Positions 10,936 through 63,799 of a stretch of 64,000 nt of DNA are shown here, one piece after another. The notes under the pieces were generated by a model. That model did no database searches. It was not told the origin of the DNA and saw only the letters and a program-made list of their open reading frames with translations. Each line of letters starts with the position of its first letter. The first letter of the stretch is position 1. The position numbers and the translations under genes are program-made. Source of the stretch: an uncultured Actinomycetes bacterium (GTDB lineage: Bacteria; Actinomycetota; Actinomycetes; S36-B12). The stretch lies in the NCBI GenBank assembly GCA_963755335.1, contig CAVWJW010000004.1, positions 396,473 to 460,472 on the forward strand. Direction: 5' to 3'.

Positions 10936-11044
10936 TGGCTAGCGCCGCCATCCGGAGTGCTGGGCTACAACAACTTTCGCGAGTGGCCAGGGGCGGGAGA
11001 TCCCCCATCTTCGGCAGCGAGACCCCAAGCGCGGGCCGGCCTCG

Positions 11045-14000
11045 TCAAGTCTTCCAGGTGACGAGGAGCCACACGTCGCGCTGCCCCGGGTCGAGCTGGA
11101 CGGTCCACTGCGTGCCGATCTTGGGCGTCGCGGGGATGGGGAGCAACTCCTCCAGCGGGTCGCCGGTGGCTGCCGGAGGCACGAACAGGGCCAAGGACTC
11201 CACCTTGACCTTCGGGCCGGCCCAGGAGGGGAAGTGCTCGGGTCGGAGTGTCAACGTCAGCGGCGCCTGCGCACCCCCCTGCGCGACGAAGGCGGCCCAC
11301 TCCGAGGGGAACTCGTGACGTAGCGAGAACATCCGCACGCGACCGGCCGCACCGGTGTCGCCCGTGCCCTTTGCCAGCTTCTGCACCCGCTTGACGGCTG
11401 CGTCTACGGCGCCGCCGTCGAAGCGGGCCGAGAGGCTCAGGTGCAGCACGACATCGCTGATGGTGTCGTAGTCGAAGACCCGGAAGCCGTCGGTGCCCTG
11501 GCCCGGCAGGGTCAGCGTCCATTCGCTGATCGCGCCGGCGAACTCGAAGGGGCGGACCCGGTCGTCCCTGCCGCCGGAGGCGTCACCGCCGGAGTCCTCG
11601 ACGCCGGTGCTGGCGACCATCTGTGTCACGGCGCCGTTGAGGTCGGTCAGTTCGCTGGCCGGCTCCATGCGCACCTGGCTCCTGGTCAGCGAAAGCACGC
11701 AGTTAAGGCTCGTGTAGGGGGCGGCCACACACGGGATGCTGAGCGAGGCCGACCGTATGCGACGCCGGTAGAAGCCCGGGGCCTCCAGGTCGAACCACTC
11801 CTCAGGCACGGAGAACGAGCAGGTGCCGGTGGCGCGCAGCGTGAGCAGTGCTAAGGGGTCGAGCTGGGCCAGGCTGATGTGCCGAGTCGGCTCGAGCTCG
11901 GGGCTGTTCGCCTCGTCGTACGCCGCCTGCATCCGCATGGAGGTCGAGCAGCAAGTTCTCGCCGCCGTATAGGCCTTCCATCCCGCCCTCGTAGCCGGGA
12001 CGGATGTACGTGGGCGCGTCCGCCGCGAGCAGCAGTTCGTGGCGCATCGCCGCCTCGGCCTTGCGGGCCAGTTCTTGGGCCAGGGCGAGGGTGCGGGTGT
12101 AGAGGCCGCGGGTTTCGCGCTTTGACCAGGCATAGAGGGCCTTGTTGCCCACCTTGCCCTTGGGGTCGGTCGCCTGGGCGTTGAGGAACGTCTCGATCTC
12201 GCCTGCCTGTTGAATCTGCACCCGCTGGTTGGCCAGCTCACGCTCGGAGATGGCCTCACGGATCTGTGCCGCGCGCAGCTGGCGGTAGAGATGGTTGATC
12301 TCGGTCGTGGCCAGGCTGCTCTGCTGTGCCCACTCTTGCTCGCGACGCCAGTAGTTGCCTACCTTCGCGGCGACGCCGGCCTGGTGGTTGAGTTGATCCG
12401 CGTAGGCGATCAGGTTGTCTGCGACGAAACGTGCTACTTGCCCCAGCTGGGAGCCTCCGAAGCCGAAGTCGCCACCGAGCCCCCAGAAGTGGAACTTGAC
12501 GCCAAAATCGGGGATGAGGGAGACGCCCTGACCGGAGAGTTGAGCCATCTTGATCAGATCGGTGATGGTGCGCGCGGTGCCGTTCTTGTCCAGCTCCTCG
12601 TTCTCGAAGCGGGAAAGCATTCGGCCGGCCGCCTCGGCGGCCACGTCGGTGACGATGTCTATCGGCACGTCGCGCTGGGCGAGAGTTGGCTCCTCGACGT
12701 TGAACTCGAACGACGTCAGTGACGACACGTCGATCTCGTCGAGCTCGGGAACCACGATGTCACCGAGGCTGCGCCCGAGCTGGCGCTCGTAGTAGGTGTA
12801 GCGACTGATCGCGCTGCGCATCGAGGCGGCGACGGCCTGGCGTGACTTCACCGACTCCTGGAGCTGGGCGTAGCGCACCTGCTCGCCGAGCTCGTAGAGC
12901 TGGCGCTCGTGGCGGGCCCGCATGAGGGTGAGCCGCTCGGCGTCGTCCTTCTCGGTGGCTCCGAGCAGGCTGGCGCCCAGGCTTGCCGCCGACTGGGCTG
13001 CCGCGGCCGCCTGCTGGTGCAGCACCGTGAACCGGACGTGCGACGGCGGCTGACCCAGCCCGGCGACGATCGCGTCCACGGAGAGTCCGGAGGCCGTGGC
13101 GCGGGCGAGCATGGCGGGGTCGATCGGCGGCTCGAACAAGGGGAGCTGGCGAAAGACGCCCTGCAAGTTGAGGCTGTTGCGGATCTTGAACAACCTGTCG
13201 GCCACGGCGTCCCAGTAGGCCAGCAGGTTGTCGTTGCGCGGTACGCCGAAGTAGAGGGTCCGGCCCAGGTTGCGCAAGGTCACGAGCCGCCCGTCCGACG
13301 CTGTGGCCCCGGGCTGCGGGGCGAGGTCCAGGAGCAGGGAGCTCTCGACGGGTCGCATGGCGTTGCCGAAGGCGTCGAGGTCCTTGCGCAGGTCAGCGTA
13401 GGTCTGGCTGCGGGTGGTGCCCTTTGACGGCACGGCCTGCGGACGCGGCCCAAGGATGTTGGCCGCCAGCACGTACAGCTGCATGGCTTCGTCGATTGAC
13501 TCGCCGGTGTCCTGGCGGAACAAGGAGTCGCCCCAGGCGATGAGGTTGTCGATGTACGCCATCACGGTCTTGACCATGTAGGCGGACTGACGGAAGCGTG
13601 CGACCACGTGCGGGCGGAAGGGGGCGTCCTTCCATGCACCGATGGCGTTAACCGTGTCGCGCTGGAGCACCGGGTCGTCGCCCGTGGACAGGTTGACCAG
13701 AATCTCCTCGATCCGTTGCACGTCTGTCGTCTGGAACGGCTTGACGCGCCAATAGCGCTCGGGGCTGACCTGCGCCGAGGTGTCGGTGGGGTCGAACATG
13801 AAGTGGAACCATCGCATCGCTTCCTCGTAGCGGCCGCTGCGCGACAGGTTGACCGCCACGAGCATCGGCACGTGGAAGAACAGTTCCCAGTTGTAGCCGG
13901 CGTAGGCGCCGCCCAGGCTGAAGTCGAGCTCGTCCACGGGGTGGGGGTTCTGCGCGGTTCCCGGCACGGACGCCCCTGGCAGATAGCCGGCGAAGAATGG

Positions 14001-14580
14001 CCGGTGTAGCACGGGTTGGGGCGCAGCGTCGACCAACGTCCCGGCAAGGTCACTCGACAACGTGACCCGGGAGCCGGCGCGGCGCACCACCTCGGCGCTG
14101 CTCGGGACGACCACCGGCGTGCCGGGCGCGCCCAGGATGACGTTGCCGTCGGGTGCCACGATGTGTCGCCCGGCCAGTCTCGCCGGACTGCCAGCGAGCG
14201 TCAGACCGATCCCGTCGGGCAGTTGGACGACTTCGCCCTTGGCGATCCTGACATTGCCGCTGTCCGCAGTGCCGTCGGCCGTGACGACAACGGACGTCGC
14301 ATACTCCGTGTCGACGGCCAGGAGACTGCGGGTCGAACCGGCAAGGAGCCGGCGGGTGAGCTCGCCGACGTAGGGGTGGTAGTGCGGGCTGAAGGCATAG
14401 GCCAGGTTGCGTTCCCGCACGACGATGTGGCGCGACTCGGTGTGCGACCCGGGCCTGTGCACGATCGGGCCGCTGGAGCGCCGGGCCAAACAGGTCGTCC
14501 TTGGCGATCGTGGAGACGACGGAATCGGCATAGCCGTGGAAGCTCGTGGCGGCGAGGGCCGCATCGGATGGCTTGGCCAT
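11045..14580 (-). CDS. Tc toxin complex A component, C-terminal subunit (pore-forming and TcB-binding domains); frameshifts near 14470 and 11940
   Basis: YNWELFFHVP, DRLFKIRNSLNLQG...LPLFEPPIDP, RRIRSASLSIPCV, PFEFAGAISEW, FDYDTISDVVLHL; own RBS aggag. Confidence 0.88.
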
Positions 14581-14587
14581 GGCGCTC

Positions 14588-17500
14588 CTAGCGGTTGAGC
14601 CGGGTGATCAGGCCGACGTTGGCCACGAGCCCGGGTCGTTCCTCGGTCAGGTCGAACGCGTGGTCGGCGAAACCGGAGGAGCCGACCACATTCACGCGAG
14701 TCACTTCAGTGGACAGTCCGGCCTGAGCGAGGGCTTCGGGGTGGACCACGGCCACGGCCGAAGGTTCAAGGCCCGAGGCGGCGGTGTCGCCGAAGTCGGT
14801 GAGTTGCGTGCGGTCGAAGAGCCCGGGTTGGTCCGCCACCAGGACGTGGTCGATGGCCGGGCCGGTCATGGCCGATGAGCTGGCCGCTGCGACGGTGATC
14901 GCGACCGAGCCGCGCGGACCCAGCAGGCGGTCGCCGAAGAGCACGCCGGTCGACGGACCCATGAGCACGTCTTGAGGCAGGCCCTGGAAGACCTTGGGCC
15001 AGGGGTTGCCCGACTCGGGGATCCCGAGATCGGGCTGCACCAGTTCCGGCACATAGGGCCGGAGGTTCAGGTGGTCGACGATCTCGGGTGGGAAGACCAC
15101 CACCGGGCCGGCGTCGGGCACGAGATAGGACTCGAACGTCTCGATCGTGGTCTCCACCAGGGTGGGCTCGACGAAGAAGGTGCGGCGCGTGTCGGCGAAG
15201 AAGAACGGACTGACGAGAGAGCCGATCTCGGACCCACCGACAGTGACGGCGTTGGACGACGGGGTGATCGTGAACGGTCCGACCGCGCCGAGCACCGGCA
15301 TGGTCACCGCAGTCGGCACCGCCGCTCGGTCGTTGGTGGTCGTCAGCTTCTGCGTGAAGGAGACGACGAACGTGCCACTGCCGTCGTAGTGGTTGAACCG
15401 AGCGGCTGTCGACTGGAAGGGCATCGGCGGACGCGGCTGATTGGTGCCCTGCTCCAGGGGGCTGTTGCGACCCCGCAGCAGGAGCGTGCGCGTCGTGTCG
15501 CCGGTGAGGTGCACCTGGACTCCGGCCTCGTTGCCGTCGACGTCGTAGACGAGGGAGGAGTGGACGAACACCCGCGAGGGGTCGAGGGCATAACGACTGG
15601 AGAACGAGGGGATCGACCCGAAGCCGCTGCCGGTCGGGGCGGACCACTTTCCGGCGACGTACTCGCTCCAGTGGAGTTGGATCTGCACCGAGCGGCTGAC
15701 TCCGTCGCCGCGTGTCGATTGCTTGACCTCCGAAAGCGAGGCGTCGATGAGCTTGGGGTCCTTCTTCGCCGGAATGGCGCCGATGGAGGTCGCATTCACG
15801 GACCCGGACCCGGATCCGGCAAGTACATTGACGAACACCTGAGTCGCCGCGTCGACCTTCATCTCCAGACCGCCGGATGGTGAGGCATCAGCCGAGTCGG
15901 GCTGCTCGAGGAAGGTCACCCAGAACACGTACAGGCGGTTGCGCCAGATCACGGGGACGATGTGGTCGCCCTCGATGTTGACCCCCATCGGCTCCCAGGG
16001 AGTCCAGGTGCCGTGGTGCTGACGCCGGTAGAAGTACTGGCGCGGCAGGCCGTGGGTGCGACCGATGACGTGCAGTTGGTTGCTGCCCGGGTCTAGGAGG
16101 TCCTGCTCCCAGAACATGCCGCAGACCTCGAGCCGGGCGATCTCGTCGAGCTTGCGGAGATACGTCAGGAAGGCGTCTTCTGCCAAGTCGTCGGTGACGT
16201 CGGCCTGGACCAGGGTGCTCTCCAGCTCCTGGAACAGGTGTGACTTGTCGTCACGGAACTCCGGCTCCAGCCAGTTCTCAGGGAACAGGAAGATCTTGCG
16301 GTTGGCCTCCCAGACCCGGTAGCGGCGCAGCCAGGACCAGTGGTCAGGGTCGAGGGTGCTGGGATGGACCAGGGGCTCGACGCCGAGCAGGCAGCGCTGA
16401 ATGAACAGCTGGGCCGACGAAATCGCCTGGCGCACGCGCGACGTCCGCAGCACCGGCTCCGAACCTGGGTCGAGCAGGAGGTACTGGTAGAGCTCCTCGA
16501 TCGTTCCGAGGTCGAGCCGGACGAGGGTCGCTGCGACCAGGGCGTCGCGACGGGCGGCACGGAGCCGGTCGTTGACGGGGGCGGCGACGCGCTTCCAGAC
16601 GGTCACGCCGGTGCGCGTGCGCAGGGCATCGCGTGACTCCTGTGCGATGCGGCGGCGGTCCTCCATCGTGGTTGCCTCGAGGGTGACGGCCGTCCACCCG
16701 GCCAGCGTTTTGGCCGGGACTCCGGAGCGGCTGACGAGACGGAGTCCCTTCCAGAGCCGCACCAGCCCCCTGACGGTGCCGAGGTCGTCGGCCTCGACCT
16801 TCAGTGAGGTGGCGACGTCTGCCGTCTCGTCCGTTGTTCTTCGGGTCAGCCGAGCGAGGATGTCCAGCGCGTTCGCCAACCGGTCCGCCGCCGAACCGGC
16901 GCCCCTCGCCGTGGTGAGGACGGTGACCAACTCCGAGGACCCGCCGGCCGCCTCGTCACGCACGGCCGCATAGTCCAGGAGATCAACGAGCGTGGACAGG
17001 AACGGAGCCGGGCCGGCGACCTCCTCGGCCGGGAGGTCGGCGAGCCCGAACTCGGCAACCTCGTGGGCGTCGAGCTGGAGCCTGTCGGTCAGCACGAGCA
17101 CTCGGCCCAGGAGCTCGTGGGTGCGTGCGGCGGCGGCCAGATCCGGCCCTGGTGACGCCAGGCCGAAGTAGCCGTCGGCCAGGGGCGGCAGCGCCAGGAG
17201 GTCGACGACCTGCGCCTGCGGTCGTCCGAGGGCCGCCGACACGGCCTTGACCAGAATCGGGCGGGCCGCGTCACGCTCCTCCGCCGTCTCGACCGCGACG
17301 CCGGCCAGAGCAGCCGTCACGGCTGCCAGTGCCTCGGCGGTCGCCGCGGCGTCGGGGCGGAGTTCACCCTCGGGGTCGAAGCTGCACGCCGCCAGCAGCG
17401 CCACTTCGTTGGCGGTCAATCCGGCCTCGGAGATCTTGCGGCACAGCTCGACCTGGCCCAGGACGTCGGCGTCAGCACTACCTACGTATGCCGCGACGCC

Positions 17501-20500
17501 ACTCAGCCGGCGGAGCGTCACCAGGTCGCTGGTATTCACGTCGTAGGCCGAGGCCACTGCCCCGCCCACGACGGCGTAGCGGACCAGCAACTCGACCGTC
17601 GGTCGGTCAAGAGCGCTCTCGGCACTGAGCCCCTCGGCCGCCAGGATCGCAACCAGGTCCGCGGAGGTGAGGCCGGTCGCCGATTGAAGGGCCACGAGGT
17701 GACGGCCGACCGGGGTGTCGGGTGGCACGTCCTCGAGCGGGACGCCGGAGGGTGAGACGAGGACGGAGTCGCGGTCGCGCAGCGGCCCGCTGCCGAACAT
17801 CGAGTCGAAGGTCGCGGGGTCCAGTGGTGACCACAACCCGGTCAGAATCGCCTGTGGGCCGTCGTGGGCCACGAGGTCGGCGAACTCGAGCTGACGGCCT
17901 ACGCGCCGGATCGCCGTGCGCAGTGGATCACCCCAAGGAGAGTCGCCGGGCGCATAGGCGCTCAAAGCCGAGTCGAGGTCCGAAGTGCTCCAGCCGAGGC
18001 GCCGCCGGAGTCGAAGGAAGGTGTCGATCCGGACCGCCAGGTCCGCCAGCAGCTTCGGGGTGAGCGCCTCGCCCGCGGCGGTCGCGAAGTACGTCGCGTC
18101 GAAATCGCAGGACGGGTCGGGGTCAGCGAGCAGTACGACATTGTTGAGGACCTCGCCGACGATGCGCGCCAGGCGCTCGGCCGCCGTATCCGGTGAGACG
18201 AGGGCGAAGCGCGTGTCGACGGCCGCAAGCCGGCGCCCAACGGACTGGACGGTCTGCCAGGCGATCGACTCAGTGGGACCGGCGGGGGCAGCGGCGACGG
18301 CGACGAGGTCCTGGCGCTCGCGCCAGACGATCGCATCGGCCACGCTGATGCCCGCGGTGGTCAGCAGCCCCAGCTTGTCCAGCCCAGGATTGAGCCATCG
18401 AGTGCCGAGCAGGTCGACCAGGTCCTGGTAGCCGATACGGCTGACGCGGCACATCCGCTTGGCGCTTCCCAGTGCGGCGACCGCGTCAGCCTCGCTGATG
18501 AAGCCGAAGCGGGTCCACCAGTCGCTGAGCGGATCGTCGACGGTGATGACGGCGTACTCGACTTGGGTCAGCCCGAGTCTCTCCGCGGCCAGGGCATCCG
18601 TCTCGCCGTCCGCGAAGACTTCGAGGACCTCGACGAGCGGCACCTTGAGGCGCTCGGCGTAGGCGCGGGTGGTCTCGTGCCACAGGTCGAACGGCAGCAC
18701 GCTGGGCGCCTTCGACGTGCGCAGCACGTCGTCATAGACCGAGGTCTGGATGAACTCCGGCTCGGCAACCACCTCCTCGGTCGGCAGCCGCCCGCTGTCG
18801 TTCACCGTCGAATCGTCGAGTGCCCCGTGGGCCAGCGTGAACTCGAGAATCTCGTTGACCAGGTCGATGGTCGGCATCACCGTATTGGTGTTCTCGCAGG
18901 TCAGCTGGAGATGCGCGAGGTCGGGTCGGCGCTTCATGAGTTCGTCGTAAGGCGTCCCGTTCGGGTAGTCGTCGCCCTGATGCCGGCGACGCCACACCTC
19001 CCGGAAGCCTTCCCACGCAGTGGTGTCGGGGTCGAGGAACTTCAGGAGGTCGACAAGGTAGGCGGCTGGACCGAGCACCGACCGGCAGTGGTCGCACTCG
19101 CAGTAGTCCATCGACCCGAAGAGGGTCTCAACGTTCGGCCACCCGAACGAGTCCTTGAGCCGCTCAACTCCGGCGGCCCGCGCCTCCGCGTCGCCTTGCA
19201 CCGCGGCCAGGAGCGGGGCGGCGATCGCCTGCTGGGTCATGGCGTGGAAGTTGTAGAGCACAGCGCCGACCTGCTCGGACTTGCGATAGACCAGGCGGGC
19301 CTGCTCGCGTCCGGCGAAGTACGAGGCGTAGCGGTCGAGGAAGTCGACCTCCGGCATCGCGATGACGTCGAGGGCCGAGCTGAGCCCCTGGTCGAGCAGA
19401 ACCTTCATGGCGCCGTTGCTGGGTGACATCTGATAGACGCGGTGGAGAGTGTCGAGTGCTGTGGTCGTCCTGAGCCTGCGGTCGTCGTCGCCCTCCAGCA
19501 AGTCAGCGTTCTTCGATAGGAACGCCGCCGGGGAGTCGCCTCCGATGCGGAACCCGCGGTCCGCCGCGCTGACGAGCACGTGGGCCACGTCGGCCGCCTC
19601 AGCGTCACCGACCGGCAGGTCCCCACGGGTGACCTGTGCAGCCACCACCTCGGTCGGGTACGACACGCGGACCCGTCGCGCCAACTCCTCGGCGTAGACG
19701 TCCACTGCCTCGTCGTCGGTGCCGTAGGCCGGAGGGACGACGGCGGCGCCGCCGAGGTCCCGGATCGCCTGCGACCACGTGGACGGCTGATCCCACGACT
19801 GCTCGGCGAGGGTGCCGCGCAGACCCGAGCCGCCGGCCTTGTCCTCGACGTGCCTCATCAGCGAGGGGTTGTTCGTGGTGAGGAACGCGAGCTGGCCCTT
19901 GGCCCGCAGCGTGGTGATGAGCTCGGGGTCGAGTCCCGCGTCCTTCATCCGGTCCCACAGCTGGTCGGTCGAGCTGTCGTCGAGGAGGGCCGCCTGCAGC
20001 CGGGCGCGGGGACCTTCCGGCTCGTCGGGCAGGCCACTCGCGTCGAGCATCTCGCGCACGCTGGCGAGGCCGCCGCCGGGTCGGGCGTCCAGTCGGCGAT
20101 TGGTGGCGAAGTCCTCGAACGCGCGGAGGGCGGCCGAGGTCTCCCGCCGGAGAGGTCAACGATGCCGCTGTCGACCGCTTTGGCGAGCACGGCCTTAACG
20201 GTCGCGCTCGGCACCCGGCTGAGGAGGTCGGGGTCGGAAGGCAGGCCCGCGCGGAGCAAGGCGTACGTCGCATCCGGACCCATGCCCAGGTCCAGCCTCT
20301 CGGCCATGGCCGAGACCGCGATCAGCCGCGCGTCCCACCCGGTCTCGCGGTGAGCCACGGTGATGTCGGATCGCGCGTCGTCCTCGACGGCGTCACCAAG
20401 TCGCACATCACCGAGCACCGGCGCGAGGGCATCGCGCAGTCGCGCGTACTCCGAACTGGTGGCGACCGCGGTGGCCGGCGCGATGAAGTGCAGTGAGGCC

Positions 20501-20812: not shown

Positions 20813-21043
20813 GTATGTCCCCCATTTCGACCTCGGCCGATCTGCCTTGGGGGTCTGTTCGGCGTGGTCGCGCGGTGCAGTTGCCGAGGGATCGCTTGTC
20901 CGGGGTGCGACGTATCGTTGGTAGTGATCAGGAGTCCTGGCGATAAGCCCTCCGGCTTGCCAGGCGCCAACCGCGCACCGCGCACGGTGGCCCCGGAGGA
21001 AGATCCGCCCCTCGAAACGGGGGGAAGAGCGTAAGGAATCCTC

Positions 21044-23094: not shown

Positions 23095-23279
23095 TGGATG
23101 CCCGCCCCCGTCGCCGCGCATCGCCTTGCGCCGTGACGACATGGAGGTCGATGCGCGCTCGCGGGTCCGCGTTGACGCCTAGTGCCCTGTCGTTAGTGCC
23201 CACGTGAAGTACCGGTCGGGGTAGTGGGCCATAAGAACGAACGGGATGGGCGAGCTCCTGTTCCCATGCCGTGTCGTGC

Positions 23280-23416
23280 TTGACCTTCGGATGTTTGCGT
23301 GGCCGATTCTCGCCTCTCACAGCGTCGTCGGTAGTAGACAACTATTGGTCTGCCGTCGCCTCACGGGAGCCAGCACGAACGGGCAAGTAGGGCAGAACTC
23401 AGGGCAGGTTGGTCGA
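23280..23416 (+). repeat. att-like repeat (core plus right arm)
   Basis: ttgaccttcggatgttt ... acaactattgg ... ctcacgggagccagc ... gggcagaactcagggcaggttggtcga. Confidence 0.8.
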
Positions 23417-28990: not shown

Positions 28991-29063
28991 CTCATTTCCG
29001 CGTTTGCGCCACTCACAAAGTCATTGGTAATCAGCAACTATTGGCTTGCCGTCGACTCATGAG
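28991..29063 (+). repeat. att-like repeat (degenerate core plus palindrome)
   Basis: ctcacaaagtcattggtaatcagcaactattgg...gactca nearly identical to 42256-42303. Confidence 0.8.
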
Positions 29064-29257
29064 TACGTGCGAGTGCGACCGAGGAGGTAAGTGAAACGAT
29101 CGCGTGGGGTGGCTTCTTGGGCAGGGCGTCCCGTTCGACATGGTTGCTAACCCTCGGGAACCACTCAACGGCTCGGTAGCATGGACTTGTCGTCGTGACC
29201 AAGGTTCCCGGGCGGCTAGGTCCGGACTTGCACAAGTTCACCGAGGAAAGAGCTGAG

Positions 29258-33694: not shown

Positions 33695-33814
33695 CGCAGC
33701 AACGACTTGCGAGCGAGACCCCAGGCAGAGTCGAACGGCCGGCATTCCGAATCTCAATCACCTAGGACTCCTTGCCATCCCCTCGCAGAGTCCTTGCTAT
33801 TGAACAACTACTGA
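33695..33814 (+). repeat. degenerate att-like repeat with tRNA-Phe T-arm remnant
   Basis: gcaacgactt...ccaggcagagtcgaacggccggcattccga...cctcgcagagtccttgctattgaacaacta. Confidence 0.7.
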
Positions 33815-34001
33815 AGCCGCTGAGTAGCCACCTTCTTGTGAGAAGCGCCTTCGGGAACTTTGACGACGCTGCTCGGTGAGGCGGGCTGCTGACGTGATGG
33901 CCCGTCTAGTCCTGTCGGTGAAGACAGCACGGTACCGGTCTTCAGCTGGCTGAGGGTCGCGATGGGGACGATCATCTGCGGACGTGCTCGGCTTGCACGG
34001 A

Positions 34002-37510: not shown

Positions 37511-37530
37511 TTGACCTTCCGATCTTTGCG
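37511..37530 (+). repeat. isolated att-like core
   Basis: ttgaccttccgatctttgc identical to 63367-63385. Confidence 0.7.
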
Positions 37531-42148: not shown

Positions 42149-42350
42149 GGGTTGCGGAGCTTCCACTTGTTGCGCTGCAACGACTTTGGTGGCCAGGGGC
42201 GGGGTCGAACCGCCGGCCCTTCCGATCTTCAGCCGACCCCGATCGATTCTCGGCCCTCACAAAGTCATTGGTAATCAACAACTATTGGCGTGCCGGCGAC
42301 TCACAGGAGCCAGCGAGAGCCAGCAAGTCAGGGCAGACATCAGGGCAGAT
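42149..42350 (+). repeat. best-preserved att-like repeat
   Basis: tgcgctgcaacgactt + tRNA-Phe 3' half + aagtcattggtaatcaacaact + gggcagacatcagggcaga. Confidence 0.85.
42187..42232 (-). pseudogene. 3' half of tRNA-Phe (anticodon loop to CCA), att-site duplicate
   Basis: Minus strand CTGAAGATCGGAAGGGCCGGCGGTTCGACCCCGCCCCTGGCCACCA; T-arm and CCA present, 5' half absent. Confidence 0.85.
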
Positions 42351-42453
42351 ATGTTGCACCGTCGCTCTCACGGCGTCCCGCATCCGGAGCAGGTTGAACT
42401 CCATCCGTACGTACGGGGTGCGCCGCGACGGCGAGAGATCGACAATCGACGCC

Positions 42454-43095
42454 TCATACGGACCCGCGACGGCGCTTGCCGGACTTGCCGGCGACGAGGC
42501 GGGCGTTGACCGCGCTTCGGACGATATCGATGATCTGGGGGTCATCGTGAAGGAGATACGCGATGTCGGCTCCCGTCAGCATCGTGCCCAGCTCGACGGC
42601 GAGGCGGACCGGATCAGACCCGGCGGGCAGTTCAGCACCGTCCGCGGCCCTGCGTGCTTGGTCCGTGAGCAGCGCGATCCACGCATCGTGTTCGGCAGCG
42701 ATCAGGTCACGCACGAGCCCGGGGCGGCTGCCGACCTCGGCCGCGACGCTCGCGAAGAAGCAGCCTCCCGGATAGTCGCGTCGTTCGACGTGGTCCAGGT
42801 AGGCCAGGCAGAGGGTACGCAGTTGGGGGAGCCCGGGAGGGGCCGTCAACGCGGGCTGCACCACCTGTTGCACGAACACTGATCGGGCGTGCCCGATGAC
42901 GGCGCGCTGCAGTTCCTCTTTCGACCCGAAGAGGCCGAAGACCCCGCTCTTGCTCATCCCCGTGGCGGTGGCGAGCCCGGCCATCGAGAGGCCGTCGATT
43001 CCTTCCACCGTGGCGAGGGCGGCCGCAGCCTCAAGGATCGCCTCGCGCGACCGATCCCCATCCGTGCGAGATGGTCGTCCGGGAGTGTTCGGCAC
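42454..43095 (-). CDS. TetR/AcrR family regulator
   Basis: ILEAAAAL...G.SKSGVFGLFGSKEEL; GGCFF. Confidence 0.9.
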   Translation of the reverse strand: MPNTPGRPSRTDGDRSREAILEAAAALATVEGIDGLSMAGLATATGMSKSGVFGLFGSKEELQRAVIGHARSVFVQQVVQPALTAPPGLPQLRTLCLAYLDHVERRDYPGGCFFASVAAEVGSRPGLVRDLIAAEHDAWIALLTDQARRAADGAELPAGSDPVRLAVELGTMLTGADIAYLLHDDPQIIDIVRSAVNARLVAGKSGKRRRGSV

Positions 43096-43103
43096 CTAGA
43101 CAA

Positions 43104-43156
43104 ATTAGCACGCACGAGCGTACGGTCTACTTGTCCGCACGATCGTGCCAACTAAT
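43104..43156. promoter_or_regulatory. probable TetR operators in divergent intergenic region
   Basis: Perfect palindrome GCACGATCGTGC (43137-43148) and imperfect CGCACGAGCGTACG (43111-43124). Confidence 0.6.
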
Positions 43157-43168
43157 GAAGGGCGTTCG

Positions 43169-43708
43169 ATGTCCCCCTCGACTGCGCCAGCCCGTGAAAG
43201 ACAAGCCCCTCTCCGCAAGGCCTACGTGAACGATCCCTCGTTGGCCATCACCACCAAGCACGTGGTGTCTCGGCAGACGGACGACACCGACACCTGGCAC
43301 GGCGTCGTCGGCTCGCCGCAGTTTCCTGGCACGACCTGGAACTACGGGATCGATGCCAAGGTCGGCGGTGACGACGATCTGCCCAACCCTGGCCACCTGC
43401 TGTGCGCCGCACTCGCCGCGTGTCTGGAGAGCACCACGCGGGCGATGGCCGAGCACCTCGACATCGCCATCGCTGAGCTCGATGTCGAGGTCGTCGGCGA
43501 CGTCGACGCACGCGGCTGCCTGGCCATCGACCCAGCCGTCCGATCCGGCTTCCGCCACATCGACGTGGACGTACGCCTCCGAGCCGCCCCGGGCACCGAT
43601 CCCACCAGGCTGCGAAAGCTATTCGTCCTCGTGGAGGAACTCTGCGTCACCTTGGATACCCTCCGCACGGGAGTGCCTATAGACGTGCTCACCAAAGCGA
43701 GCACGTAG
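43169..43708 (+). CDS. OsmC family protein
   Basis: PNPG.LL.AALAAC, V.GD.D.RG, C.TLDTL. Confidence 0.85.
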   Translation: MSPSTAPARERQAPLRKAYVNDPSLAITTKHVVSRQTDDTDTWHGVVGSPQFPGTTWNYGIDAKVGGDDDLPNPGHLLCAALAACLESTTRAMAEHLDIAIAELDVEVVGDVDARGCLAIDPAVRSGFRHIDVDVRLRAAPGTDPTRLRKLFVLVEELCVTLDTLRTGVPIDVLTKAST

Positions 43709-43883
43709 CCAGCCGAGGTCAAGGTGTCGGCACCGTGAACGAGGTCCCCGGAGCGATGGCCCGTCCGCCAGTCGGTGTCGCCGCGATGCACGCGGATCAG
43801 TTCGCGAACGCTGAGGGGGTCGTCGAGCCCGGGATGCGAAGGACCTCAAGCGAGTTCAGGGTGCTCGCACGCAAGGAATTCAG

Positions 43884-45374: not shown

Positions 45375-45453
45375 TGGACCATCCGTGCTCCTCGAAGGAG
45401 TCATGATCGACTCACGGAGCCAGCGTCCGGCGGCAAGTAAGGGCAGAGTTCAG
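45375..45453 (+). repeat. internally deleted att-like repeat
   Basis: gactcacggagccagcg...ggcaagtaagggcagagttcag. Confidence 0.65.
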
Positions 45454-45689
45454 AACGGAAACGGCGGGCGAACGACCAGTTGCGCGCTGTACGCCTGATG
45501 TCCGGCGGTGCCACGCCGTGCGTAGCGCTGAGCGTCCACTACGCCGCCCTCAGGAATACGTTCAGCCCAGACCTTCTGGGCAGGGGGCGTATGCGGCGGA
45601 CGATGACGCGGACATCTCCGGAGACGACAGCGATTCGCGCATGAAGGCGATCAACTTAGGTGCGGAGAACGACGTCACCGACGAGATGG

Positions 45690-47472: not shown

Positions 47473-47621
47473 GTAGCACGACCGCATCGTTCCGGTACTG
47501 ATCGTTTCCGACGTTCGCGCCGGCCTTGGTGAAGACGGACGCGACGCGGACGGTGAACGTGGTCAACCCCGCGAGCAGCTGACACCGATCCCAAGTGCCA
47601 CCTCTCCACAGAGTCCACGTC

Positions 47622-47950
47622 TTGACCTTCCGTTCTTGCCGCCAAAGCGAGATTCTTCGTACCGACCGTGATGCCAGCGCACGATCCGGTGTTCGACCTC
47701 CAACAACGAAAGGGCAGCGATCACTTGCCTAGTGAATCAGTCCGGATTGCGAGGGCAGAAAGCGCTGGGCTGCAACGACTTTCCAGGACTACCGATTGCG
47801 GGGCCGAACGCCATTGACCTCCCGGCTCTTCAGCCGTCCCGGACCAATTCCCGACCTCACAGAGTCATTGGCATTAAGCAACTACTTGACACTGTCGGCG
47901 ACTCACGAGAGAGCGTGAACCGGCAAGTAGGGGCAGAGTTTGGGGTAGAG
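47622..47950 (+). repeat. double att-like repeat (core, ~193-bp unit, core, right arm)
   Basis: Cores at 47622 and 47814; colinear with 53344-53680 and 63367-63696. Confidence 0.8.
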
Positions 47951-47967
47951 ATGACGAACCATCAAGG

Positions 47968-48266: not shown

Positions 48267-48464
48267 TGGGGAAGACGACCCTCGGGTGGATCGCGCTTCG
48301 TGAGCCACCATCACGGCTCGGGCCGGCCTCCGCTATCTCGGACGATGCCCTGGGGGATTCTCGAAGTCGGGAATTGGCGCCCTCACGCTTCAGCGGCACG
48401 TCGGGCCGCGGCAACTTCCGGCAACATTGCGACGCGACGCGACGACGCGGTCGAGGATTGCGGC

Positions 48465-49885
48465 ATGCAGACTCCGCGGCCGTTCTCGCCACATCCCGAC
48501 CGGCTGCTTCCGGCCGATCCCCAGGGGAGGGCCGTCGCGCGCCGGATCTACGAGGGCGTGCGCGACCTGCCCATCATCAGTCCGCACGGACATGTCCCGG
48601 CGAAGCTGGCTGTCCGTAGACCGGCCGTTCACGGACCCGACGTCGCTCCTGATCTCGCCAGATCACTACATCACGCGACTTCTCCACGCCTCAGGCGTGC
48701 CCGCGAAGCTGGGCGTCGGCCGAGCTCGTCTGACCGATGACGAGGCGCGCGAGGCATGGCGGATCTTCTGCGCGCACTGGTCCGGTCTTCGCGGCTACGC
48801 CGTCGCGCTACTGGATGGAGAGCAGCTGGCGGATATCTTCGAGGTCGAGCTACGACCGAGCGAGCAGAACGCCGACGCGCTTGTACGACGAGATCTCGGC
48901 CAGGCTGGCGTCCGCCGAGTTCCGGCCACGCGCCCTGCTTCGTCGCTTCGGGATCGATGTCCTGGCGACGACGGACGATCCGTGCGACGACCTGGAGGCT
49001 CACGCCACCGTCCGCCGAGCCGGCGACGTGTCGGCCCGCGTCGTCCCGACCTTCCGATCCGGATCGTTACCTCGAGCCCGGTCGCGCACGACTGGCCGGC
49101 GCTGGTGGACGCTCTGGGGTCAGCCGCAGACGTCGACACGGACTCCTATGACGGCTTCATCCACGCCCTGGAGATCCGTCGAGCGCACTTCATCGATCAC
49201 GGCGCCGTCTCGACCGACCACAGCCATGCGGACCTCGTCACGCTGACACTGGACGCAGGCGAATCTCGACGCATCTTCTCCGCCGGCGCGTCTCCGCCGC
49301 GACCGACGCCGAGAGTACGGCACTGCGTCGGCACCTACTCGTCGAGATGGCCCGAATGTCCGTGGAGGACGGGCTGGTCATGACACTCCACCCGGGCGTC
49401 GCGCGCGACCATCACGCACCGACGGCGGCCCAGGTACGGCGCGGATGTCGGGTGCGACATCCCGATCGCGGTCGAGTACACGCGCAGCCTGCAGCACCTG
49501 CTCGAGCGGTTCGGGACGGCCGGACGGCTTCCACCTGGTCCTGTTCTCGTTGGACGAGACGACCTTCTCGCGGGAGATCGCGCCGCTGGCCGGCTTCTAC
49601 CCCAGTGTCTACGCAGGGGCGCCGTGGTGGTTCCTGGACGCGCCCGACGCGATCCGGCGCTTCCAGGGAGCCGTCACCGAGACCACCGGATTCACCCGCC
49701 TGTCGGGCTTCATCGACGACACCCGCGCCTTCTGCTCCATCCCGGCCCGACATGACATGTCGCGTCGGCTGGACAGCTCCTACCTCGCCGAGCTCGTCGC
49801 GCGGCACCGGCTGGACGAGGACGAGGCGGTGTCGATCGCGCGCGACCTGGTCCTGGTCAACCCGAGACGGACGTTCAAGCTCTGA
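48465..49885 (+). CDS. uxaC: glucuronate isomerase, multiply frameshifted
   Basis: LPIISPHGHV, PDHYITRLL, LATTDDP, STDHSH, GAPWWFLD, GFIDDTRAFCSIPARHDMSRR. Confidence 0.88.
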
Positions 49886-49965
49886 CGGCGCCGAGGTGGG
49901 CCGGCGTGGCGACGTAGGCGGACGTGCCCGACGGGATCGCACGCAGGCGCCGTCATCGGATCCGG

Positions 49966-51380
49966 TCAGAGACCAGCATCGGCGCGTCGGAGGGCGTCCA
50001 GCTCGCGGACCTGGTCCAGCACCACCTGGCGCACGACCGCATTGTCGGAGAGCGACGACGCGTACCCCTCGGCCAGTGGGCGGCCGACCCGCGGAGCGCA
50101 GCGAGTCAGCCTGAGGGTCGTTCACCGGGGTCCCTGCCCCGCAGGTGCAGGACCCAGGCCGCCAGGGCGCGCGTCGCCCCAGTCGCGACCGCTCCCTGGT
50201 CGAGCCGCGCTCGAAGCACCGGGAGGATCCGCGCCGGCAGCTTCTGCGAGCCGTCGGCCGCGATCTGCGCGAGCAGATGCCGGATGCGCGGGTTGGCGTA
50301 CCGGCGCCAGCAGTGCCGCGCGGTACGCGTCGACCTCAGCGCGGGGAGGGGCAGCACCCCGGCAGCGTCGTCCCACCACTCCTCCACCCAGCCGCGGACC
50401 GACGCGTTGCCGATCGCGTCCGCGACGGTCTCCGAGCCGAGCAGCGGCGCTGCGTACGCCATGAGGGAGTGGGATCCGTTGAGGAGCCAGAGCTTGCGGT
50501 GCTCCCACGGCACCAGGTTCTCGACGAAGCGCGCCGCTGAGGTCTCCCACGCGGGACGGCCCGCCACGAAATCCCCCGACAGCACCCACTCCGAGTAGCG
50601 CTCGGTGACGACGCAGGCGAGGTCGTCGACCCCGGTCCGCCGGAGGAGGTCCGCGCGGTCCTCTCCGGTCGTGCGCGGGGTGATGCGGTCCACCATCGTC
50701 GTGACGAAGGTGCAGTAGTCGGCGACCCAGGTCGAGAGTGACGGGTCGACGACTTCTGCCAGGTCGAGGACGACCTGCCGGACCACCTGACCGTTCCCCG
50801 GCAGGTTGTCGCACGGCACGAACGTCATGCCGCCGAGCCCTGCGGCCCGTCGGGCGAGGAGTCCCGCGACGAGCTTGCCCGGTGCAGTCACCGTGTCGGC
50901 GGCAGCGGGACCCTGCCGCAACGAGGCCACGTCGGAGGCCACGCGCGGATCATCGACGTCCAGGGCACCGGTGCCGCTGCGGCAGTAGCCGGCCTCGGTC
51001 ACGGTCGAGGTGACGATCGAGAGATCGGCGAGGCGGAACGTAGCCCTCCAGCGGTCCAGGTCGACGGAGCCGTGGACCTCGGAGATCGACGACATCACGA
51101 ACGGCTCATCGTCTGAGGCGTCCCGCAGCAGGAGCGTGTAGAGGCCTTGCTGCGCGACGAGGCCCGCGGGGGGCTCGGTCCGGCCGGCGAACGCGGCGAT
51201 GCCCCACTGATGGCGTCGGTTGCCCGGTCGGTGTACCACGCCTGGTGTGCGCGGAAGAAGTTGCCGAGACCGAGATGCGCGATGCGCACGGGGGCCGCGG
51301 CCCTGCCATCGTGATCGCGCGAGAGGCGCCGCGCGATCGTCGGTCGTCCGCCGGATGCGTCCACGGCTGAGACCCTACGG
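49966..51380 (-). CDS. mannitol dehydrogenase family (D-mannonate oxidoreductase, UxuB-like), frameshifted
   Basis: [55 protein letters not shown]. Confidence 0.88.
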
Positions 51381-51544
51381 CGGCCCGACGAACCGCACAG
51401 CGGCTCGTGCAGCGCGGGGCGACGGTTGCTCCCGTGCGGGAACCGGGAAGCATGCCGACCAGCAGGCATCCATCGGCCACCGGCCCGAGCCGGACGCAGT
51501 CCCGAACCGGAGTCCGCGCGGCAGCGAGCTGGAGGAGCCCGACC

Positions 51545-52780
51545 ATGAAGATCGTCTCCGCCGACGTCATCGTCACCAGCCCCGACCGCAACTTCGTCAC
51601 GCTGACGGCTGACGACCGACGACGGCCTGGTCGGCATCGGCGACGCCACCCTCAACGGGCGCGAGCTGGCGGTCGTCGCCTACCTGCGCGACCACGTCGT
51701 CCCGCTGCTGATCGGCCGGGACGCGCAGTCGCATCGAGGACACCTGGCAGTTCCTCTATCGCTGCGGCGTACTGGCGGCGCGGGCCGGTCACGATGGCGG
51801 CGATCGCCGCCGTCGACATGGCTCTGTGGGACATCAAGGGCAAGGCGGCCGGGATGCCGGTCTACCAGCTGCTCGGCAGGCGCCAGCCGCACCGGCCTGC
51901 ATGGCCTACGGTCACGCGTCGGGCAAGACGCTGCCCGAGCTGTTCGACTCGTGCGCGACCACCAGCAGCAGGGCTACAAGTCGATCCGCATCCAGACCGG
52001 CGTGCCCGGGCTCAAGTCGATCTACGGGATCGCCGCGCAGTCGAGCGAGCGGCGAGCGGTACGACCACGAGCCGGCGCAGCGTGGTGCCTACCCGGCCGA
52101 GGAGGACTGGGACACCCGCGCCTACCTGCGCCACGTGCCCGACGCGTGTTCGAGGCCGTGCGCAACGAGTTCGGCCCGGAACTGCCTCTGCTGCACGACG
52201 GCCACCACCGGATGACGCCGATCCAGGCCGCCAAGCTGGGCAAGTCCCTGGAGCCGTACGACCTGTTCTGGCTGGAGGACTGCACCCCCGCCGAGAACCA
52301 GGAGGCGCTGCGCCTGGTGCGACAGCACACCACGACTCCGCTGGCGATCGGCGAGGTCTTCAACACGGTCTGGGACTACCAGCGATCATCCGGGAGCAGC
52401 TGATCGACTACGTCCGCAGCGCCGTCGACGCACATCGGCGGCATCACCCGCTTCGCAAGAAGCTGCTCGACTACGCGGCCCAGTACCAGATCAAGTCGGG
52501 CATGCACGGGCCGACCGACATCTCGCCGGTCGGCTGGCCGCCGCGATGCACCTGGGGCTGTCGATCCACAACTTCGGCATCCAGGAGTACATGCAGCACG
52601 GCGCCAAGACGGACAGCGTCTTCCGGCAGTCGTTCACGTGGACGGACGGCTACCTGCACCCTGGCGACGAGCCGGGGCTCGGCGTCACCCTCGACGTCGA
52701 CGAGGCCGGTAAGTATCCGTACGAGCAGGCTTACCTACCTTCCCAACCGGCTGGCCGACGGCACGGTGCATGACTGGTAG
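51545..52780 (+). CDS. manD: D-mannonate dehydratase (enolase superfamily, ManD/RspA), frameshifted
   Basis: [57 protein letters not shown]. Confidence 0.88.
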
Positions 52781-53285: not shown

Positions 53286-53680
53286 GCGGGTTGCGGAACT
53301 CGGCTGGAGGGACTTCGGCTGCCACGGTGCACGCCCGGAGCCGCCCACCTTCCGATCTTTGCCGCCAGATCACGACGCGTCGCGGCGACCGTCGTGGCAG
53401 CGTGCGATCCGGAAATTCGTGCTCCGACGCGAAAGGGCAGCGCCCCTTTCCAAGTGATTGAGTCTGGATTCGCCACAAGCGAAAGTTAATGCGCTGCAAT
53501 AACTTTCTCTTGTCGGCGTTTCGGGGCAGAGTGTCGTTGACCTCCCGATCTTCTGCCGTCCCAAACTGATTCTGGCTCCTCGCAAAGTCATTGGTATTAA
53601 ACAACTATTGGACTTGCCTCGACTCACGAGAACCAGCGTGAACCGGCAGGTAAGGGCAGAATTCAGGGCAGGTTGGTCGA
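53286..53680 (+). repeat. double att-like repeat preceded by decayed tRNA-Phe 3' half
   Basis: gggttgcgga...gacttcggctgccacgg...ccgcccaccttccgatcttt; second core at 53537; aagtcattggtattaaacaactattgg; gggcagaattcagggcag. Confidence 0.85.
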
Positions 53681-62989: not shown

Positions 62990-63366
62990 GGCGGTCTCCT
63001 CGAGTGATCGATGCGAGCGGCAGTGAGGTCTTAGTCCTCGTCGCCCGGTGGTGAAGGGCGCGGCTGGGGGCCGCAGCCGCGGCGAACACGGCATCGGCAA
63101 CCAATACCCGGGCTTGGGCAATTAAGTCATGCCTTCGTCAAAGGTTCCCGAAGAATCCTGGGTGTGGCCGGTGGATCACTCATCGCGATACCGATTCACG
63201 GATCGATCGCACCGGCGCGTGCCGCGGAAACGCCGGGCCGACAAGTTGAGGACAAGCCATGTCGTCCCCCTCTCAATTGGGACAAAAGGTACGCTTCTGA
63301 TGCAGAGATTTCTAGGCGCCAGGCTGCCTGGATTCGGCCACACGCACCCGCTGAGAACGCTGGCCC

Positions 63367-63696
63367 TTGACCTTCCGATCTTTGCCGCCAAAGCACGATT
63401 GTTCGTGCCGACTGTGATGCCAGTACACGATCCCGGAATTCGACCTCAAACACGAAAGGGCAGCGCTCCTTTCCGAGTATATGAGTCTGGATTGGGAACG
63501 CGCGAAAGTGATTGCGCTGCAACAACTTTCGAACGTCGGCGTATGTGAGCAGAGTGCCGTTGACCTGCCGATCTTCAGCCGACCCCGATCGATTCTCGGC
63601 CCTCACAAAGTCATTGGTAATCAACAACTATTGGCGTGCCGGCGACTCACAGGAGCCAGCGAGAGCCAGCAAGTCAGGGCAGACATCAGGGCAGAT
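63367..63696 (+). repeat. double att-like repeat
   Basis: Cores at 63367 and 63560; gaaagtgattgcgctgcaacaactttc palindrome; right arm identical to 42222-42350. Confidence 0.85.
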
Positions 63697-63799
63697 ATGT
63701 TGCACCGTCGCTCTCACGGCGTCCCGCATCCGGAGCAGGTTGAACTCCATCCGTACGTACGGGGTGCGCCGCGACGGCGAGAGATCGACAATCGACGCC

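Follow-up and report, generated by a model that had tools for sequence, protein, structure and literature searches.

Architecture and probable role of a two-armed site family arrayed at the tRNA-Phe gene of an uncultured actinomycete

The window analyzed, a 64,000-nt stretch of contig C4 (G000:C4:396473-460472) of an uncultured Actinomycetes bacterium (genome G000, assembly 86% complete), carries at positions 42149-42350 a group of motifs around a tRNA-derived core. These motifs are conserved blocks in a site with diverged spacers and flanks, and their spacing is fixed across organisms with unrelated cargo. We consider it probable that this is an attP-type site of tRNA-Phe integrative mobilizable elements (IMEs), in which the short boxes are integrase arm sites and the palindromes are accessory-protein sites, and at which modules were stacked.

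Architecture and conservation of the site

The original prediction described a core flanked on each side by an imperfect palindrome of the form AAGTnnTTG-N5-CAAnnACT, with GGGCAGA-N5-GGGCAG direct repeats at the end of the site. All the coordinates given for these motifs were correct, including that of the left palindrome near 63504, and the core was flanked by a palindrome on each side in the copies designated c42 and c63. The alignment of extended copies gave a site of about 330 nt, longer than 42149-42350, which corresponds to its right two thirds. In plus-strand order, the left half consists of core1, the GGGCAG box CGAAAGGGCAGCG, GAGTCTGGATT, the left palindrome and a decayed tRNA-Phe 3′ half, and the right half of core2 (anticodon stem-loop), a spacer, the right palindrome, the CGACTCAC box and GGGCAGA-N5-GGGCAG (Table 1). 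The second core about 190 nt leftward, the third GGGCAG box, the CGACTCAC box and the rigid spacing of the landmarks were absent from the earlier description. The stretch from core1 to the box is variable and shows dyad symmetry.

The frequency of the motifs was compared with chance expectation. The exact GGGCAGA-N5-GGGCAG pattern occurred four times in the window (23390, 42331, 53654 and 63677) versus 0.01 expected from shuffles, and the two variants predicted were also found, with one mismatch at 47931 and three at 45441. The palindrome pattern, with at most one mismatch, gave 11 strand-matches corresponding to seven sites in the window (29018, 42165, 42262, 53483, 53585, 63506 and 63608) versus 0.00 in shuffles, and a 14-nt core pattern gave seven matches versus 0.06 expected. 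Genome-wide, the exact palindrome pattern occurred five times, four of them in the array and one directly 3′ of tRNA-His beside an integrase.

Table 1. Coordinates of the sites in the window and conservation of their blocks
Feature	Position in window	Strand	Mean pairwise identity	Remarks
c11 remnant	10959-11015	+		Outermost array trace found; half palindrome, 14 nt of tRNA-Phe 3′ end, core-like stretch
c23 right arm	23279-23415	+		Core and palindrome degenerate, direct repeats exact
c29 right-arm fragment	29003-29091	+		Palindrome kept, direct repeats lost
c33 weak decayed copy	33695-33819	+		E 8e-6
c37 lone core1-type remnant	37513-37526	+
c42 left palindrome variant	42164-42186	.		Two mismatches to AAGTnnTTG-N5-CAAnnACT; abuts tRNA 3′ end
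c42 tRNA-Phe 3′ half, anticodon loop to CCA	42187-42232	-		Sole tRNA-like 3′ half in assembly
c42 core, anticodon stem-loop and variable region of tRNA-Phe	42216-42236	.		Left end of c42/c63 duplicate
c42 right palindrome	42260-42287	.
c42 CGACTCAC box	42297-42304	+
c42 direct repeats GGGCAGA-N5-GGGCAGA	42331-42349	+		GGGCAGA 42331-42337, GGGCAG 42343-42348
c45 fragment	45406-45458	+		CGACTCAC box and degenerate direct repeats
c47 complete site, more diverged	47615-47955	+		Second repeat GGGTAG; T-arm-like remains in tRNA part
c53 complete site	53344-53672	+		c63 landmarks at same spacing
c63 complete site	63367-63695	+
c63 core1, second tRNA-derived core copy	63367-63389
c63 GGGCAG box CGAAAGGGCAGCG	63453-63466
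c63 GAGTCTGGATT	63483-63493
c63 left palindrome	63504-63530
c63 decayed tRNA 3′ half	63531-63559
c63 core2	63560-63582
c63 right palindrome	63606-63632
c63 CGACTCAC box	63643-63650
c63 two direct repeats	63677-63695
Block: GGGCAG box CGAAAGGGCAGCG			0.89	Best-conserved block
Block: left palindrome 3′ arm			0.88
Block: core1			0.86
Block: first direct repeat			0.86
Block: left palindrome centre			0.79
Block: second direct repeat			0.75
Block: core2			0.73
Block: CGACTCAC box			0.73
Block: right palindrome arms			0.63-0.68
Block: tRNA-derived part			0.56
Block: spacers			0.44-0.59
Block: flanks			0.29-0.32

Concerning c42, its tRNA-Phe 3′ half has one extra variable-loop base compared with congeners, and contigs of other runs omit one letter at 42216. 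A 27-nt spacer separates this half from the right palindrome. Since ARAGORN found no tRNA gene in the window, the tRNA-Phe stretch at 42187-42232 is a fragment.

Three other identities for parts of the site were tried and rejected. As a severed integrase or other gene, the left arm offered a 78-codon frame that is open in one copy and contains stops in others, and the peptide had no relative among longer or similar-length proteins; no frame is open through all copies, and the left arm was treated as non-coding. As a structured RNA, no site matched any Rfam family at gathering score, the best match on 63300-63760 having an E value of 0.31. As the 3′ end of another tRNA, the spacer before the right palindrome scored at most 11 when four copies were locally aligned with the last 40 nt of each of the 45 tRNAs.

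Conservation was estimated with 9-12 copies per block, coming from G000, G013, the contig and metagenome of the ELA605 MAG (L038/L040) and a second metagenome contig (L039). The right arm of c42 was left out because it is a duplicate of that of c63. The claim that the motifs are better conserved than the tRNA-derived part was borne out, with mean pairwise identities of 0.75 and 0.56, respectively (Mann-Whitney p 8e-5, overstated since copies and columns are non-independent). The motif columns also exceeded the other in-site columns (0.64; p 7e-4, a generous value given linked columns and shared ancestry) and, in the per-column comparison that had been proposed as a check, the flanking bases (0.31). 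As the copies are related by descent, these statistics overstate constraint.

The spacing of the landmarks is a stronger signal than block identity. The distance from the box to the left palindrome was 47-49 nt in 9/9 left arms, that from core2 to the right palindrome 45-46 nt in 9/9, that from the right palindrome to the first repeat 68-69 nt in 11/12 (73 in the decayed c29), and that from repeat to repeat 12 nt in 13/13. The distance from core1 to the box, on the other hand, varied from 67 to 91 nt. Each palindrome lies about halfway between core and boxes: measured centre to centre, the core is about 52 and 50 bp away, and the boxes are about 56 and 62 bp away.

Another possibility is that old tandem insertions left these sites behind as inert relics, which resemble each other by recent common descent and uneven mutation rather than by present function. 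The truncated or decayed copies c11, c29, c33, c37, c45, k477 and k485 agree with this, as do an array devoid of integrase and the IS fragments and frameshifted genes of the island. However, alignments of G000 with two other sources are confined to the sites (72-88% nucleotide identity) and do not extend to the cargo or the tRNA-Phe upstream flank; the spacing is invariant although one neighbouring spacer varies by 24 nt; and a 99.7% identical cargo duplicate begins exactly at the core. This makes the relic interpretation very unlikely. Concerning the flanks, that upstream of tRNA-Phe in G008 gave no alignment with G000, and the synteny of the G013 flank with G000 was mosaic and uninformative. 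To judge from their block-wise conservation, to which shared descent of the copies contributes, the motifs may be kept under selection, as originally proposed.

The tRNA-Phe junctions and the array of modules

The junctions of the array with tRNA-Phe locate the point of recombination. At C4:488663-488712 (minus strand), a tRNA-Phe 5′ half meets the last copy of the contig, a left arm, at the core, and at 42216-42236 the true tRNA-Phe 3′ half meets a right arm at the core. Both junctions share CTGAA(A/G)ATCGGAAGG with tRNA-Phe, and the attL and attR of a related element in genome G003 agree with them. The G000 and G003 junctions show that strand exchange takes place in the core, a stretch of about 17 nt in common with the tRNA. 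As in an attP, there is a core segment identical to the target, with the crossover inside it.

As assembled, the sole tRNA-Phe gene is split, with its 5′ half on a decayed left arm and the sole intact-looking 3′ half 50 kb off. ARAGORN found 45 tRNAs in G000, covering the other 19 amino acids, with tRNA-Phe absent from the 86%-complete assembly; most congeners have one copy of it. There may be a second tRNA-Phe copy or a variant arrangement in the genome. The assembled tRNA-proximal junction counts against the attP reading, since it breaks tRNA-Phe, which an active tRNA-restoring system should not do.

The tRNA-Phe loci of 20 congeners were also compared. Ten had an intact tRNA followed by palindrome-like sequence, eight were empty, and two were unclear or cut. 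The ten occupied loci carried two boxes of the same motif at a similar place, most of them with a second core about 210 nt downstream, while the eight empty loci had no palindrome, boxes or second core.

The array comprises about 13 sites, whole or partial, in a single orientation. It begins at 10959 in the window and ends some 81 kb further on, at the truncated tRNA-Phe. The G+C content of the window is 66%, compared to 68-69.5% in large contigs. The sites of C4 were found with a profile built from six full copies, and the lone core at 37513 was added by pattern match. The profile recovered three complete sites (c47, c53 and c63), c42, the right-arm copies or fragments c23, c29, c45 and k477, and, as weak matches, c33 and c11. 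Two left-arm copies lie outside the window, at C4:485073-485317 (with an internal deletion) and C4:488464-488682, and contig C7 holds one further right arm.

According to Pfam scans, the array cargo includes regulators (TetR, HxlR, sigma/anti-sigma, Crp), small enzymes and PAS-GGDEF-EAL proteins, besides TcA-like toxin genes, IS fragments and some frameshifted genes. The module between the c11 remnant and c23 (11048-20059, minus strand) has large ORFs with TcA_TcB_BD, ABC_toxin_N, neuraminidase-like and VRP1 domains, the TcA_TcB_BD domain being divided between two overlapping ORFs. A SAM-IV riboswitch is present at 20926-21035 (plus strand; 78.8 bits, gathering score 38). At 48427-50111 and 51407-52777, genes of the glucuronate isomerase and mandelate-racemase types are each divided between frames; these may not be true pseudogenes.

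The duplicate that begins exactly at the core of both c42 and c63 comprises 1528 nt with TetR and OsmC genes and is located at window 42218-43745 and at G000:C4:460036-461563. Two more cargo duplicates inside the array are 94% and 87% identical.

Pfam scans of the ORFs across the array detected no integrase gene between its sites, and a six-frame search for PF00589 gave no match in C4:407-489 kb (9 matches genome-wide). No serine/resolvase-type recombinase was found anywhere in the assembly. The modules of the window carry no integrase, so any movement of them would need one in trans. As in cis-mobilizable elements and accretion arrays, the att sites flank modules that lack recombination and transfer genes of their own.

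A scan of a genome collection with the left-arm pattern returned one record, and a metagenome scan returned four loci on three contigs. The site family occurs on integrase-less modules with other cargo in at least two organisms besides G000. A contig of the MAG Actinomycetes bacterium ELA605 (L038, 1190-8777) shows one 8.6-kb module between two sites, with three large ORFs (1232, 799 and 492 aa) essentially without Pfam match. Twenty public runs were available as Logan contigs, with a best word share of 0.41; in the four examined the matching pieces were of about 150 nt, none of them across the core.

A different situation was observed in G004 (G004:C4:1818500-1848620; L074, L075), where a classical tandem array occupies the same tRNA-Phe core. 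There the true 3′ half is present three times, the arm motif is another one, the palindrome is missing, and an integrase and an AbiE pair lie inside.

Candidate integrase and nature of the palindromes

An intact tRNA-Phe element was found in G003 with a sequence model of the right arm. Its complete right arm (L088:3108-3243) is preceded by the displaced tRNA-Phe 3′ half and the core (L088:3085-3243 for all three together), its other boundary is formed by tRNA-Phe and a left arm (L073:17946-18165), and the native flank beyond the displaced 3′ half is without palindrome. The spacings are those of G000 (69 nt from palindrome to repeat, 12 nt from repeat to repeat). The 24-kb element between these arms encodes a divergent tyrosine recombinase of 481 aa (PF00589, 24 bits; L073:12593-14035) and TrwC, as well as Fic proteins, a PD-(D/E)XK nuclease and a restriction-modification set.

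Recombinases of this divergent type occur 2-7 kb downstream of tRNA-Phe in G003, G007, G011 and G020, all with a left-arm unit, and a paralogue in G000 (47-49% identical; C4:523494-524807) sits at tRNA-Lys. This type is the leading candidate for the family of the cognate integrase; a cognate tyrosine integrase is absent from the array modules, and the candidate is found only in those four relatives. A point against the attP reading is that the recombinase gene of G003 lies about 18 kb from the right-arm repeats instead of adjacent to them. No integrase was found beside the right-arm repeats in L086, L087 and L089.

In the proposed mechanism, a lineage-specific family of integrative mobilizable elements, which encode a TrwC relaxase besides a tyrosine recombinase, would have the anticodon loop of tRNA-Phe as its insertion target. 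The three GGGCAG boxes (one in the left arm and two in the right, in the same orientation) are the putative arm-type sites of the cognate integrase. By sequence they behave as attP arm repeats, being present on both arms, distinct from the core and conserved with identities of 0.75-0.89; other tRNA-linked elements of the genus have their own short direct repeats at the equivalent place. The palindromes, judging from the geometry of the site, would be bound by a dimeric accessory or architectural protein that bends the arms and brings the arm-bound integrase to the core. Repeated insertions would have piled modules up at the tRNA, as expected from the internal junctions, which carry both arms, and the tRNA-derived halves at these junctions would have decayed once they no longer completed a tRNA.

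The palindrome is not exclusive to the tRNA-Phe sites, and in G000 it was found at mobile-element ends only. Directly after tRNA-His on C3 come the palindrome, two TTGGGGACA repeats and an integrase of 415 aa, in a 28-kb element whose far end has the same repeat inverted at C3:10714. Directly after tRNA-Lys (C4:522 kb), the palindrome precedes two TTAGCCCTC repeats and a recombinase of 481 aa. It also stands directly after tRNA-Thr on C2, and at C8:1966 kb it adjoins a tRNA-Met 3′ half, with repeats and an integrase coming next. Congeners repeat the pattern at tRNA-Lys, -His, -Thr and -Met. The order core, palindrome and short direct repeats is thus a general syntax in this genus. Across element types, the repeats and the core change with the integrase, while the palindrome stays.

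A second array was observed at G000:C2:556390-579650, with at least four sites made of the palindrome and a tRNA-Thr-like 3′ half, 5-11 kb apart, near an integrase at C2:584.5 kb.

The expectation that the motifs are integrase arm sites and sites for Xis or host factors is supported in part. The GGGCAG boxes fit arm sites well, but the palindromes do not co-vary with the integrase, so that Xis or a host factor is one option for them beside an oriT-type repeat or a hairpin. Their sequence tracks the conserved relaxase backbone instead, which is a point against the attP reading. Since it is shared across integrase types, the palindrome would bind a factor that is family-wide, or be oriT-like.

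According to the second possibility, the palindromes are oriT-type inverted repeats for the TrwC of the family, the modules are mobilizable in trans, and the boxes and the core alone serve recombination. The TrwC relaxases of three integrase-bearing G000 elements (at tRNA-His, -Lys and -Met) are 72-92% identical, while the integrases across these types (the Met one taken from G008) are only 24-26% identical. TrwC is present also in the tRNA-Phe element of G003. The confinement of the palindrome to element ends points in the same direction, as does a near-identical palindrome in an iteron-rich region of an unrelated viral contig. The stretch concerned (L085, 1700-1950) is rich in A+T, has about eight GTTCCGCA-type iterons around the palindrome and adjoins a DUF927/Cch-type protein and a helicase. 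On the other hand, the tRNA-Phe site has two palindromes, symmetric about the core and in fixed register with core and boxes, which an oriT does not need. No shared nick-like sequence was seen, by inspection without a formal motif search, beside the palindromes of different element types, and the relaxase gene is 2.6-3.5 kb off, with the integrase gene between. The oriT interpretation is considered unlikely.

A third interpretation, markedly less probable than the preceding one, would dispense with protein recognition. The palindromes would be RNA hairpins, the left one stopping or insulating transcription from the restored tRNA and the right one shielding the neighbours. The left palindrome always starts 0-10 nt after the tRNA 3′ end and folds well in the tRNA sense (-16.8 kcal/mol, z -3.3), similarly to the tRNA-Thr example (-16.3 kcal/mol, z -4.8), and a U run follows the tRNA-His example. 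In contrast, nothing terminator-like was found by a consensus scan of 63300-63760, folding of the right palindrome is weak (-7.2 kcal/mol, z -1.0), and the element types have the sequence itself in common, beyond its pairing. At stem positions 7-8, bases are paired in only about 26-30% of 27 instances, with no compensating changes; seven of these alignment rows were one base off register and were set aside, 20 rows being relied on. The G+C-rich hairpin plus T run of an intrinsic terminator was thus not found, and a hairpin is possible for the left palindrome only.

Returning to the accessory-protein interpretation of the palindromes, the bending protein would be common to the whole element family and not tied to one integrase. 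Because the palindrome is absent from host contexts, this protein would more probably be a conserved one of the elements than one of the host.

Comparison with known systems and biological meaning

Heterobivalent tyrosine integrases act on attP sites in lambda, mycobacteriophage L5 and pSAM2-type actinomycete elements, and in lambda attP the IHF sites lie between the core and the arm sites. The site described here resembles these in its tRNA-shared core, non-core arm repeats on both sides, intermediate sites and span of about 250-350 bp. It differs in its sites between core and arms, which are sequence-specific palindromes found alike in elements whose integrases are unrelated and whose tRNA targets differ, and in the second core copy of its left arm.

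There is also some likeness to integron attC sites and cassette arrays, in which integrase-less units, each with an imperfect-dyad recombination site, are stacked at a fixed anchor. Here, however, there is no IntI, attI or promoter platform, the sites reach about 330 nt and combine a tRNA-derived core with arm repeats, and the units are operon-sized with their own regulators. No integrase was found at either array end, and the right palindrome folds weakly. It is doubtful that the array is a working, integron-like gene-capture platform, in which modules would be moved in trans by a tRNA-Phe recombinase, docking at core1 would spare the tRNA and the palindromes would allow TrwC transfer.

Cis-mobilizable elements and accretion at ICE/IME attachment sites are treated in ICEberg 2.0 (PMC6323972) and in a review on IMEs (PMC5704250), and tandem AICEs of Streptomyces avermitilis, with a 44-bp att remnant for an AICE pair, by te Poele 2008 (PMC2440964). 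As far as those accounts go, the present array is similar in having att-flanked modules without recombination or transfer genes, in one orientation, at a tRNA. It is different in its size (about 13 sites over about 81 kb), in that its internal junctions keep a two-armed site of about 330 nt versus 44 bp, and in that at least two further organisms have this site family with different cargo.

In the tycheposon islands of Prochlorococcus (Hackl et al., bioRxiv 10.1101/2020.12.28.424599), according to the parts of that study considered here, the elements carry integrases, and the remnants are partial tRNAs and fragmented integrases. Both systems share successive tRNA insertions that push older elements inward and leave partial tRNAs and remnants, as well as metabolic cargo. 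Unlike what is described there, the modules of the present array have no integrase trace and keep long structured sites, and the host is a high-GC actinomycete with an integrase plus TrwC backbone. A precedent for tRNA insertion that does not restore the tRNA is the tRNA-dependent lysogeny of mycobacteriophages (Guerrero-Bustamante and Hatfull 2024, PMC10865867). In the account given there the phages bring a replacement tRNA, while here the 86%-complete assembly has no other tRNA-Phe.

The stacking of elements at a tRNA is in itself well known. Less usual are the long, two-armed, phase-conserved sites that modules without integrase retain in at least three organisms, the core duplicate of the left arm and the palindrome common to elements with unrelated integrases. 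No description of this site family was found in the literature searched, the searches not having been aimed at it.

The base-by-base map of an undescribed attachment-site family, together with a candidate integrase and an intact reference element, makes the assignments of arm and accessory sites directly testable. The shared palindrome may point to one factor used throughout a set of tRNA-targeting elements. Should the modules without integrase still be mobile, high-GC actinomycetes would have here a way of gathering operons of regulators plus enzymes, together with genes for toxins and defence, at a single tRNA.
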